Assembly (NCBI GenBank): GCA_001775995.1
Contig: MEZH01000007.1
Coordinates: forward strand, 264,806-323,270
Direction: 5' to 3'
Length of the DNA: 58,465 nucleotides
From: Candidatus Bathyarchaeota archaeon RBG_16_48_13
GTDB lineage: Archaea > Thermoproteota > Bathyarchaeia > RBG-16-48-13
In this document: positions 33,350 through 49,545 of the stretch, piece by piece
Numbering within the stretch: position 1 is the first letter of the stretch
Layout: each line of letters begins with the position of its first letter
Made by a program: the position numbers and the translations under genes
Notes under the pieces: generated by a model
Database searches by the model: none
Told to the model about the DNA's origin: nothing
Seen by the model: the letters and a program-made list of their open reading frames with translations, nothing else

Positions 33350-33397
33350 AACCAATAGCACCTCTCGAATGTTTAGTCAATACAAGACCAGCGCGTA

Positions 33398-33541
33398 TGG
33401 CGCCGCCGGAAGGACTCGAACCTTCGACCAACGGGTTTCCGTTCCCGTTTTAAGAGGATTAACAGCTTCAGCCCCTTGCATCATTTTGAAGGGTCCGCTG
33501 CTCTACCGACTGAGCTTTCGTCCATGATTGCGTACGGCGGC
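33398..33541 (-). tRNA. tRNA-Asn(GTT) with three introns (about 9/10: 33532-33516; 30/31: 33494-33467; 37/38: 33459-33437)
   Basis: Removing 17+28+23 nt gives a 76-nt cloverleaf with GCGGG CT GTT AA CCCGT; clear BHBs at the last two introns. Confidence 0.9.
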
Positions 33542-33657
33542 CCAGGGGCCTCTTCGGCGGCGCTACTTTTTGGAGATTTGATGCTCTATTTAAGTTTTGA
33601 GAAGGCTCATGGAAAACGTTTAAATCAAGATCGGAAAGAGCTATTCTTTGTCTCGGC

Positions 33658-33752
33658 GGGCCCGTAGCTCAGCTAGGTTAGAGCGACAGGCTCATAATCG
33701 AACGTAATGAGAGACCTGTTGGCCGGGTGTTCAAGTCGCCCCGGGCCCACCA
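33658..33752 (+). tRNA. tRNA with CAT anticodon, probably Ile2 (agmatidine-modified); canonical intron 33697-33713
   Basis: GGGCCCG acceptor stem, A73, ACAGG CT CAT A|A CCTGT; BHB helix CTCA/TGAG. Confidence 0.88.
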
Positions 33753-49405: not shown

Positions 49406-49545
49406 TGGTGGGCCGGATGGGATTTGAACCCGCGACCTTTCGGTTCCTGAGCATTGATCATATCAGCTTCGTCCCCAGCCCCATGAGGGCCAAGTCGAAC
49501 GCTCTCTATGGCCATGTTGTGGAAACCATGCTGAGCTACCGGCCC
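49406..49545 (-). tRNA. tRNA-Ile(GAT) with three introns (about 20/21: 49523-49506; 30/31: 49495-49468; 37/38: 49460-49445)
   Basis: Three BHBs (ATGG/CCAT, CGTT/GACG, CTGA/TCAG); the spliced product is 78 nt with TTCGG CT GAT AA CCGAA. Confidence 0.92.

Follow-up and report, generated by a model that had tools for sequence, protein, structure and literature searches.

Is the interrupted tRNA-like locus on the minus strand of this stretch a functional gene, and in what order would its three introns be removed, given that the splicing motifs of two of them draw on the same nucleotides? The window, by which we mean the whole 58,465-nt stretch of DNA analyzed here, belongs to the MAG of an uncultured Bathyarchaeia archaeon. 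ARAGORN called no tRNA genes over the whole window, and the Rfam tRNA model gave a partial match at the locus that scored 27.4 bits, under its cut-off of 29. Because default tRNA finders miss the gene, the MAG would seem to be without a tRNA-Asn.

Exons, introns and mature product of the tRNA-Asn gene

We found a tRNA-Asn(GUU) gene with an encoded CCA at positions 33541 to 33398 on the minus strand. Introns make up 68 of its 144 nt (17 + 28 + 23) and lie at sites 8/9, 30/31, and 37/38; its parts are as follows.

Positions 33534 to 33541, minus strand: exon 1, tRNA positions 1 to 8 (5′ acceptor strand GCCGCCG and U8), placed by spliced alignment and the ARAGORN cloverleaf.
Positions 33517 to 33533, minus strand: intron 1, 17 nt at 8/9, with a relaxed BHB motif.
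Positions 33495 to 33516, minus strand: exon 2, tRNA positions 9 to 30 (D arm and 5′ strand of the anticodon stem as far as G30).
Positions 33467 to 33494, minus strand: intron 2, 28 nt at 30/31, with a strict hBHBh′ motif.
Positions 33460 to 33466, minus strand: exon 3, tRNA positions 31 to 37 (GCUGUUA, 7 nt), with the anticodon GUU inside.
Positions 33437 to 33459, minus strand: intron 3, 23 nt at the canonical 37/38 site.
Positions 33398 to 33436, minus strand: exon 4, tRNA positions 38 to 73 (3′ strand of the anticodon stem, variable loop, T arm, 3′ acceptor strand, G73) plus CCA.
Positions 33400 to 33398, minus strand: the encoded CCA, the last nucleotides of exon 4.

A preliminary description of this DNA had given the same coordinates, intron lengths, intronic share, and 7-nt anticodon exon; its reading of the locus as a tRNA-Asn gene with three introns is upheld by both the ARAGORN product and the exon boundaries of orthologues. 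Deleting the three inserts in silico leaves 76 nt, which ARAGORN recognized as tRNA-Asn(gtt) with a regular cloverleaf; intron removal thus restores the canonical fold, at junctions that match those of orthologues with fewer or zero introns. The spliced tRNA is identical to an intron-free orthologue (L004) at 71 of 73 positions and to 26 orthologous tRNA-Asn genes at 63 to 72 of 73. Its anticodon loop, CUGUUAA, has 7 nt with GUU, U33, and a purine at position 37, which together with orthology identifies it as tRNA-Asn. The discriminator base is G73, an Asn identity element, and is followed by CCA, as in most orthologues.

BHB-like geometry alone was rejected as evidence for the introns: shuffled 144-nt sequences average 1.25 strict motifs, and 37% of them have two or more. 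We also rejected the deletion of segments until ARAGORN accepts the remainder, which at a tRNA-Ile locus gave 58 solutions and at least 10 anticodons from 9994 combinations; because this test was too permissive, orthologue boundaries were used to place introns instead. Folding of the whole precursor was likewise discarded as evidence (minimum free energy, −49.1 kcal/mol; z = −1.10), with 30 of 200 shuffles folding equally well. The gene structure stands above chance because its exon boundaries match those of orthologues with fewer or no introns, and because BHB pairing is kept far above the level of shuffled-intron controls, in which strict motifs occur at 0.2 to 0.4%.

The survey of orthologous tRNAs proposed in the preliminary description covered 127 distinct tRNA-Asn genes (this gene and 126 orthologues) with none to four introns each, and found the identical three-site layout in 31 of them, mostly in MAGs named Bathyarchaeia. 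The 8/9 intron occurs in 86 of the 127, and 84 of these 86 introns have at least a relaxed BHB, compared to 12.7% of shuffled controls. The 30/31 intron, whose 3′ end (...GGCUGAA) is conserved among orthologues, has a strict motif in 114 of 120 orthologous introns (0.2% in shuffled controls), and all 42 introns at 37/38 have at least a relaxed motif. Pairing also follows sequence change: in two orthologues (L022 and L029) with the acceptor strand GCCACCG, the pairing strand of intron 1 has become GGUG. A strain variant (run X8) keeps all three introns and has two differences within the gene, both intronic, one of which turns a G·U pair into A-U. This tRNA-Asn gene is real and has three BHB-type introns; it is a kind of gene already known.

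Junction refinement resolved eight genes with four introns and gave no valid combination for three others (L014, L021, and L078). The aligner's own junctions for T-arm and variable-region inserts had no BHB and were rejected.

BHB geometry and predicted order of splicing

The BHB motif consists of two 3-nt bulges at the exon-intron junctions with a 4-bp helix between them, and is cleaved after the second bulge nucleotide (PMC7714728). Introns 2 and 3 have this geometry, intron 3 acquiring its exon-side helix after intron 2 is removed; intron 1 has it in relaxed form only. At intron 2, for which a perfect CAGC/GCTG BHB at 30/31 had been described, the central helix CAGC/GCUG indeed pairs at four of four positions, with two 3-nt bulges and outer helices of 2 and 5 bp. 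Intron 3 has a fully paired central helix, CUGU/ACGG (four of four, with one G-U), and an intron-side helix of 4 bp. Intron 1 pairs CGCC/GACG at three of four positions, with a C·A mismatch, flanked by an exon-side helix of 6 bp and an intron-side helix of 2 bp. The earlier placement of intron 1 at about 9/10, with a relaxed BHB and a tolerance of ±1, was right about the relaxed motif and within its tolerance but not in its register: 8/9 fits best (three of four pairs) and 9/10 gives one of four, although both yield the identical mature RNA. The exon-side helix of intron 1 extends beyond the gene.

Positions 33542 to 33545, minus strand: last four nucleotides of the leader, CUGG, which with G1 and C2 pair tRNA positions 10 to 15 (GCUCAG) in the 6-bp exon-side helix of BHB-1.

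An exon-side helix of at least 4 bp, which requires leader nucleotides, is found at intron 1 in 67 of 84 orthologues, compared to 18.6% with a shuffled leader. Because BHB-1 uses acceptor positions 1 to 6 along with the last leader nucleotides, intron 1 would be expected to leave the precursor ahead of 5′ trimming by RNase P. The BHB of intron 1 and that of intron 2 each include one D-stem strand, so that both introns could be cut from the primary transcript.

The preliminary description had proposed that the 30/31 and 37/38 BHBs compete for exon sequence, and the nucleotides they share are now identified: in precursor numbering, C77 and U78 belong to both the outer helix of BHB-2 and the central helix of BHB-3, while G44 and C45 belong to both the central helix of BHB-2 and the anticodon stem that BHB-3 needs. 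In the primary transcript that stem, the exon-side helix of intron 3, is limited to 1 bp; without intron 2 it has 7 bp, and the cost of the full BHB-3 in constrained folding drops from 8.07 to 0.33 kcal/mol, which is the behavior of a nested intron in silico. BHB-2 gains nothing from earlier loss of intron 3. Removal of intron 2 eases BHB-3 in 30 of 41 orthologues; the 11 exceptions include a soil clade of about nine genes. Since the full BHB-3 can form only once intron 2 is gone and the anticodon stem restored, intron 2 is predicted to be spliced before intron 3, and the earlier suggestion that splicing may be ordered gains support in silico. That one intron must leave before the next BHB can form has been described already (PMC8450103, section 13; PMC3728597).

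The scheme that we infer, from transcription through cleavage and ligation to the sequence of events and a supporting part for the leader copy, would run as follows. The transcript would start about 22 to 25 nt upstream of position 1 and carry three protein-spliced introns; EndA, probably the two-subunit form of broad specificity, would cut each intron in both 3-nt bulges of its BHB, and RtcB would join the exons. Introns 1 and 2 would be cut out of the primary transcript and intron 3 afterwards. None of the three BHBs is present in the minimum-energy fold of the precursor, and forcing them costs 4 to 8 kcal/mol. In that fold the partner of CAGC is the GCUG of the exon, not that of the intron, which means that BHB-2 lies above the ground state; splicing is assumed to need capture of a minor conformer by the enzyme.

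The introns could also be real and their order free, with a broad-specificity EndA cutting relaxed cores in the primary transcript in any sequence of steps. The cores of BHB-2 and BHB-3 have no nucleotides in common, and both can be formed together for 8.8 kcal/mol (37°C); in the primary transcript the two relaxed cores are about equally costly, at 4.5 kcal/mol for intron 3 and 4.2 kcal/mol for intron 2; and two-subunit and three-unit EndAs reportedly accept hBH, HBh′, and BHL forms as substrates (PMC4090602, PMC4033280). The 11 of 41 orthologues in which loss of intron 2 does not ease BHB-3 fit this alternative too. We consider it somewhat unlikely, however, because the core of BHB-3 falls in cost from 4.47 to 0.33 kcal/mol without intron 2, and because the strict 37/38 motif is found in 2 of 42 primary transcripts but in 25 of 42 after the other introns are removed. 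Moreover, the order measured in Cyanidioschyzon merolae, by reverse transcription-PCR (RT-PCR) of intermediates, correlates with BHB free energy and always places the anticodon-arm BHB last (PMC3728597).

The leader copy of the 5′ acceptor strand

Upstream of the gene, 20 nt from the tRNA, lies a second copy of the strand that opens it, with the following features around it.

Positions 33555 to 33566, minus strand: leader strand GUAGCGCCGCCG, whose last 7 nt (33561 to 33555) repeat the 5′ acceptor strand exactly.
Positions 33395 to 33397, minus strand: trailer UAC, which can pair GUA, the first three nucleotides of the leader strand, and so lengthen the helix between the leader and the 3′ acceptor strand (minimum-energy structures, constrained and unconstrained).
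Positions 33587 to 33593, minus strand: TATA-like box TTAAATA, a putative promoter, 52 to 46 nt upstream of position 1, located by eye.

The copy can pair with the 3′ acceptor strand, and the pairing can take in G73 and C74. In the partition function of leader plus gene at 37°C, the 3′ acceptor strand pairs with the copy at P ~1.0, which leaves P 0.0 for the true 5′ strand. Across the survey, a copy of at least 6 nt is present in 65 of 85 genes with the 8/9 intron, compared to 0 of 41 without it; judged by pairing instead, a 7-bp helix between the leader and the 3′ strand occurs in 63 of 85 versus 2 of 41.

This statistical link across orthologues suggests a helper role: the leader copy probably holds the 3′ acceptor strand that is orphaned while BHB-1 is formed. 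We therefore offer a tentative model, whose chances we put slightly under even, in which the transcript starts with a stand-in 5′ acceptor strand that would serve as a built-in folding aid and keep an acceptor/T-arm-like helix intact during BHB-1, with introns 1 and 2 leaving first, then intron 3, and RNase P acting last. If true, a surrogate strand would explain how an intron is tolerated at a site where its BHB destroys the acceptor stem and the D stem.

The copy may instead be no splicing helper at all, but a relic of the 5′-end duplication that made the 8/9 intron, or a promoter-proximal element; we regard this as rather unlikely. The promoter spacing speaks for it. The TATA-like center lies 29 nt before the leader copy (median, 31 nt in 56 orthologues), and at about −48 relative to position 1, compared to a median of −31 in genes without the 8/9 intron; that is, the copy sits where position 1 sits in those genes, as would be expected had the original 5′ end been kept and a new one added downstream. 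(We take TTAAATA to be the promoter from the archaeal TATA consensus; our TATA regex overlooked it and returned an irrelevant site at −80.) In addition, relatives are not independent, so that a single origin with joint loss could yield much of the 65-of-85 versus 0-of-41 contrast; 20 of the 85 intron-bearing genes have no copy of at least 6 nt; and a very stable leader helix could hinder final folding. A neutral relic would, however, be expected to decay. The copy persists from family to family, at distances that vary between −10 and −31, and also in Nitrososphaeria-type MAGs, yet is absent from all 41 genes without the 8/9 intron. Three of five genes with a variant acceptor carry the variant base in the copy (L145, matching at seven of seven positions, L022, and L029), and in some genes pairing outlives identity through a G·U change, which accords with the 7-bp helix counts. 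In a strain variant, the flanking C-G73 pair of the leader helix becomes U·G.

In the predicted fold, the leader helix is favored over the true acceptor stem even when the tRNA is fully spliced (P 0.89 versus 0.11 at 60°C), and the folding model gives no explanation for its release. The copy was also considered as the real exon 1 and rejected on inspection of the sequence, because the product would then have A8, where all orthologues have U8, and the intron-side helix would be missing from the BHB.

Gene copy, splicing enzymes and related systems

Since the host MAG is 74.99% complete, its missing 25% could hold a second tRNA-Asn. Neither the 25 Rfam tRNA matches nor the 25 intron-allowing ARAGORN calls in this MAG included one, and in a search of the MAG with blastn-short and an anticodon-loop/T-arm regex the locus was the sole match. 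BLAST matched nothing but the intron-bearing gene in three relatives rated 100% complete (G031, G039, and G027). An intron-free tRNA-Asn serving GTT, which the preliminary description had named, together with the lack of a spliced product, as what would make this copy a pseudogene, was thus not found in the 75%-complete MAG.

We are confident, if short of certain, that this archaeon has its functional tRNA-Asn(GUU) gene, probably the sole one, at this locus, and that the gene is spliced along the lines proposed. The MAG's incompleteness, the Rfam score under cut-off, and a metatranscriptome run that gave no RNA support at the locus would all suit a decaying pseudogene, with a tRNA-Asn in the unassembled 25% serving the AAC and AAU codons, but this is highly improbable given exons that form a flawless cloverleaf with encoded CCA and near-identity to an intron-free orthologue (71 of 73), the same interrupted gene as sole match in relatives rated complete, BHB pairing kept while intron sequences diverge, and strain variation that leaves the exons untouched.

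DNA of this archaeon is present in soil and sediment samples, such as those sequenced in runs X1, X2, and X8. The sequencing runs consisted of contigs only, so stretches without cover are uninformative. Metatranscriptome run X20 had no contig of the tRNA-Asn gene; its sole contig here derives from another tRNA. An apparent joint in that contig, from 33434 to 33489, was rejected as a splice: its loose end has a different acceptor (GGGCCC), and the letters at the joint fit a CUU-type loop, which points to another tRNA. A joint in run X1 was also rejected, as it includes 14 foreign letters and belongs to another gene.

As for the enzymes, an RtcB ORF (PF01139) with one in-frame TAG is present in the host genome (G000:C7:202439-203782; E = 1.1e-172). 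EndA (PF01974) was not found in the 74.99%-complete host MAG; EndA-domain ORFs are present in 40 of 40 relatives, 30 of which have two or more separate ORFs.

Three-intron tRNA genes are already known, and nested BHBs are already in print. The preliminary description held that triple-intron tRNAs come mainly from Thermoproteales, in agreement with the reviews (PMC4033280, PMC8450103), through which multiple-intron tRNA genes are known from Pyrobaculum, Thermofilum, and Caldivirga (Sugahara et al. 2007, 2008). Like the gene studied here, those genes have up to three BHB-bounded introns at canonical and noncanonical sites, some with relaxed BHBs, and include introns so closely spaced that the next BHB can form only after one of them has left; two-subunit EndA goes along with the trait, and the genes escape standard tRNA finders. 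In contrast to the hyperthermophilic Thermoproteales, the host here belongs to the Bathyarchaeia, a lineage recovered from soil, sediment, and groundwater metagenomes (runs with a share of <0.2 were left out of the habitat evidence), and its three-site layout is old, conserved, and common to the 31 distinct genes. The conserved acceptor-strand leader copy that accompanies the 8/9 intron is not mentioned in the available parts of the Thermoproteales literature, and the accessible parts of all the literature searched make no mention of a surrogate strand that is encoded in the leader and inherited along with one intron position.

Another comparison is with the soil Asgard archaea Atabeyarchaeia and Freyarchaeia, which belong to another phylum: like the Bathyarchaeia they are mesophilic soil archaea with intron-rich tRNA genes, most of theirs having introns, often at noncanonical sites, and over half having several, some of which tRNAscan-SE overlooked (PMC11291895). 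The C. merolae pre-tRNA likewise has three BHB introns in one molecule (PMC3728597) but belongs to a eukaryotic nucleus, whereas in the tRNA-Asn gene the 30/31 and 37/38 BHBs physically overlap. Split and permuted tRNAs (Nanoarchaeum equitans, Thermofilum pendens, and C. merolae; PMC4090602, PMC3218864) resemble our gene in that flanking RNA pairs with the tRNA and builds a helix for EndA, and the odd precursor of T. pendens was given away by the unusual distance of its promoter, much as the TATA-like center lies at −48 rather than −31 here. In those tRNAs, however, it is the flanks that make up the BHB, and EndA cuts them away, while our leader copy would, by prediction, keep hold of the 3′ acceptor strand and be removed later, presumably by RNase P.

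Heavy, nested tRNA fragmentation thus extends beyond the hyperthermophilic Thermoproteales, as an old, conserved trait of a very abundant mesophilic lineage of soils and sediments, and Bathyarchaeia genomes would generally look tRNA-poor unless multi-intron models are applied. Together with its 126 orthologues, the gene provides a natural series, with zero to four introns and with or without the 8/9 intron and leader copy, that lends itself to testing how EndA deals with BHBs in competition and whether a tRNA strand can be replaced by flanking RNA during splicing.

A 30/31 intron is also present at the tRNA-Ile locus, but homology with that of tRNA-Asn is unconvincing: the Ile intron pairs GACG/CGUU and the Asn intron GCUG/CAGC, and the features they share (28 nt, an AC start, and a GAA end) are what the BHB rule demands. 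The 30/31 Asn intron itself is found in some Nitrososphaeria- and Aigarchaeota-type MAGs as well, and is therefore probably ancient.

An interrupted tRNA-Asn gene and its orthologues

The tRNA-Asn(GUU) locus (33541-33398, minus strand) starts with a 7-nt acceptor strand and U8, followed by 17 extra nt; a regular D arm and anticodon-stem strand then run through G30 to 28 further extra nt. A 7-nt exon bearing the GUU loop separates these from a 23-nt insert, 3' of which lie the remaining tRNA, a discriminator G, and an encoded CCA. Deletion of the three inserts by script left 76 nt, which ARAGORN called a regular tRNA-Asn(gtt). Minus-strand reading and ARAGORN on the spliced product confirm the preliminary description in its intron lengths, its 7-nt anticodon exon, and its count of 68 intronic nt out of 144. 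ARAGORN in default mode reported no tRNA anywhere in the window. The window is archaeal. Three tRNA matches pass the Rfam threshold within it, all away from this locus, alongside an archaeal RNase P RNA and a 16S-23S operon; in permissive mode, Rfam gave a partial match here (33516-33409, minus strand; 27.4 bits, cut-off 29), with 60 nt inserted in its anticodon region.

Bulge-helix-bulge (BHB)-like shapes by themselves are not beyond chance, because shuffles of the 144 nt average 1.25 strict motifs. Folding of the whole precursor was no better than that of shuffled sequences, and segment deletion until ARAGORN accepts is a permissive procedure, as was shown by applying it to the tRNA-Ile nearby. 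The decisive support for the predicted gene model is comparative. Loci of the source genome (the MAG) and 28 relatives were aligned to the mature sequence with splicing allowed, which yielded 27 tRNA-Asn genes; L023, which holds no gene, and L028, whose anticodon is CUU, were set aside. Four of the 27 are intron-free, among them one (L004) identical to the spliced product at 71/73 positions; inserts of the remaining genes fall exactly at the proposed boundaries, 8/9 (14/27), 30/31 (20/27), and 37/38 (3/27).

A pattern scan of named genomes found the 30/31 Asn intron in at least 119 stretches; among the matches listed, nearly all are Candidatus Bathyarchaeia or Bathyarchaeota MAGs, with a few from Terraquivivens, Wolframiiraptor, Nitrososphaerales, Conexivisphaerales, and Hecatellales. 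For 14 relatives of the same order or class the tRNA-Asn sequence was identical to a pattern-scan locus (16 duplicate pairs altogether); merging identical sequences and removing three poor alignments (L097, L115, and L142) left 127 distinct genes. The exact 8/9 + 30/31 + 37/38 layout occurs in 31 of them; the 100 pattern-derived genes carry the 30/31 intron by construction, so that layout counts are not class frequencies. These sequence matches place the source organism in Bathyarchaeia. The MAG is the only member of its family among the genomes compared, and its organism's DNA was found in soil, sediment, and groundwater metagenomes.

BHB motifs at the three intron sites across the gene set
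8/9: strict 37/86, at least relaxed 84/86; shuffled-intron control 0.3% strict, 12.7% relaxed
30/31: strict 114/120, at least relaxed 119/120; shuffled-intron control 0.2% strict, 9.3% relaxed
37/38: strict 2/42 in primary transcripts and 25/42 with the other introns removed, at least relaxed 42/42; shuffled-intron control 0.4% strict, 17.6% relaxed

BHB pairing is preserved despite widely divergent intron sequences; where the acceptor is GCCACCG (tRNA-Asn loci L022 and L029), intron 1 shows a matching change in its pairing strand. A strain variant in sequencing run X8 retains all three introns and differs at two places in the gene, one in intron 1 and one in intron 3; one of these changes turns a G.U pair into A-U.

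The preliminary description had considered that this copy would be a pseudogene if no spliced product existed and another, intron-free tRNA-Asn served GTT. We found no second tRNA-Asn in the MAG (74.99% complete), and the interrupted gene was the only match in those relatives whose completeness is rated 100%. The sole metatranscriptome contig on the locus was rejected as RNA support, since it derives from another tRNA.

A leader copy of the acceptor strand

The 5' acceptor strand is repeated without change at 33561-33555, 20 nt upstream of position 1. Together with its neighbours, this copy could pair over 9 + 3 bp, taking in G73, C74, and the trailer as well as the 3' acceptor strand; in folds that include the leader, the 3' strand pairs with the copy (P about 1.0) and not with the true 5' strand. 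Genes with and without the 8/9 intron differ as listed, in contrasts that overstate their statistical weight because relatives are not independent.

Leader copy in genes with versus without the 8/9 intron
Copy of ≥6 nt: 65/85 versus 0/41 (one short-flank gene omitted)
Trailer control, copy of ≥6 nt: 2/83 versus 1/40
7-bp helix by pairing, G.U allowed: 63/85 versus 2/41
7-bp helix, shuffled leaders: 3.4% versus 0.7%

Variant acceptors were mirrored by the copy in three of five cases. The exon-side helix of the intron 1 motif (BHB-1) reached ≥4 bp, a length that requires leader nucleotides, in 67/84 genes, versus 18.6% with shuffled leaders. In 8/9-intron genes a TATA-like box lies ∼17 nt further upstream (median centre −48 versus −31). 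The copy follows that box at a median distance of 31 nt and would therefore open the transcript. It also occupies the place where the normal tRNA 5' end would be, a position that suits a stand-in role and that fits equally well a relic of a 5' duplication. Tentatively, and at close to an even chance at best, we lean towards the copy as a helper, a stand-in strand that would hold the 3' acceptor strand during splicing. The leader helix beats the true acceptor stem in the fold even once splicing is done, for which the helper model has no account.

Predicted splicing order, and enzymes

BHB-1 is built from the 5' strand of the D stem, acceptor positions 1-6, and the final four nt of the leader. 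BHB-2 takes up the 3' strand of the D stem and the two nt that open the anticodon stem, and BHB-3 draws on loop positions 32-35, with the anticodon stem required. BHB costs were derived from partition functions calculated under constraint at 37°C. In the primary transcript, the cost of full BHB-3 is 8.07 kcal/mol, versus 0.33 without intron 2; that of BHB-2 is 4.2-5.8 kcal/mol before and 5.4-6.5 after intron 3 removal, and that of BHB-1 ∼8.3 kcal/mol whatever the splicing state. This pattern was unchanged at 60 and 80°C. Among 41 orthologues having introns 2 and 3, BHB-3 was eased by >1 kcal/mol in 30, and intron 3 removal eased BHB-2 in 10 and hindered it in 16; the trend is reversed in one soil clade (about nine genes). 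The earlier suggestion that splicing may be ordered thus holds in silico: on the BHB costs in the MAG gene and its orthologues, intron 2 would be spliced ahead of intron 3. The sections of PMC3728597 consulted here report an experimentally shown order in C. merolae, whose introns are described as independent, in contrast to the nested introns of archaea.

At the junction of intron 2 with exon 3 the sequence is GCUG-AA-GCUG (33467-33479 and 33463-33466, minus strand; precursor 70-79). CAGC at precursor 25-28 can pair with either GCUG, and the MFE takes the exon copy, forming a one-bulge hairpin that is a rival fold to BHB-2. The Asn loop sequence dictates this duplication, which all orthologues having the 30/31 intron share.

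The MAG encodes the RNA ligase RtcB; the sole match in the genome (G000:C7:202439-203782, outside the window) has one in-frame TAG. We found no match to the splicing endonuclease EndA in the MAG (74.99% complete). EndA is present in 40/40 relatives, as two or more separate ORFs (mostly about 170-210 aa) in 30/40, in agreement with a putative two-subunit enzyme, a type linked to non-canonical and multiple introns in reviews, as excerpted from PMC4090602.

Known systems and other tRNA genes

Multiple-intron tRNAs, non-canonical sites, relaxed BHBs, and nested introns are described for Thermoproteales and Thaumarchaeota in the portions of PMC4033280 and PMC8450103 consulted, which give three as the maximum number of introns per tRNA; tRNA sets saturated with introns appear for soil Asgard archaea in an excerpt of PMC11291895. 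A literature search for Bathyarchaeota tRNA introns found a single paper, in which the phylum is named just in a footnote. The gene is thus of a kind already known, in a lineage for which the literature searched does not describe the trait.

Eight distinct tRNA-Asn genes in other Bathyarchaeia MAGs have four BHB-bounded introns each: L022 (=L144), L029 (=L052), L049, L050, L071, L088, L124, and L140. Their layouts are 8/9 + 30/31 + 37/38 + 50/51 or 8/9 + 30/31 + 49/50 + 63/64, and each gave a full-length ARAGORN tRNA-Asn once the introns were removed. L014, L021, and L078, also suggested by the aligner, failed validation.

Other RNA genes in the window
33658-33749, plus strand: tRNA-Met(CAT) with a 17-19-nt anticodon-loop intron, divergent from and 116 nt from the start of tRNA-Asn
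49406-49545, minus strand: tRNA-Ile(GAU), a second multi-intron tRNA, with introns at 30/31 (28 nt) and 37/38 and an insert in the D loop
55703-55998, plus strand: archaeal RNase P RNA gene, immediately 3' of the 23S rRNA gene

In metagenomes, the tRNA-Met exons collect a pile-up of contigs from many unrelated organisms. The tRNA-Ile 30/31 intron has a CGUU/GACG central helix (4/4) and a 9-bp intron-side helix; homology to the tRNA-Asn 30/31 intron was not convincing beyond what the BHB rules require. Genome-wide, Rfam matches tRNA at 25 places in the MAG (E ≤ 1), most of them 85-136 nt long, and ARAGORN with introns allowed makes some implausible calls, such as a Gln whose 71-nt intron sits at position 33; overall, the tRNA set is rich in introns and badly decoded by standard tools.
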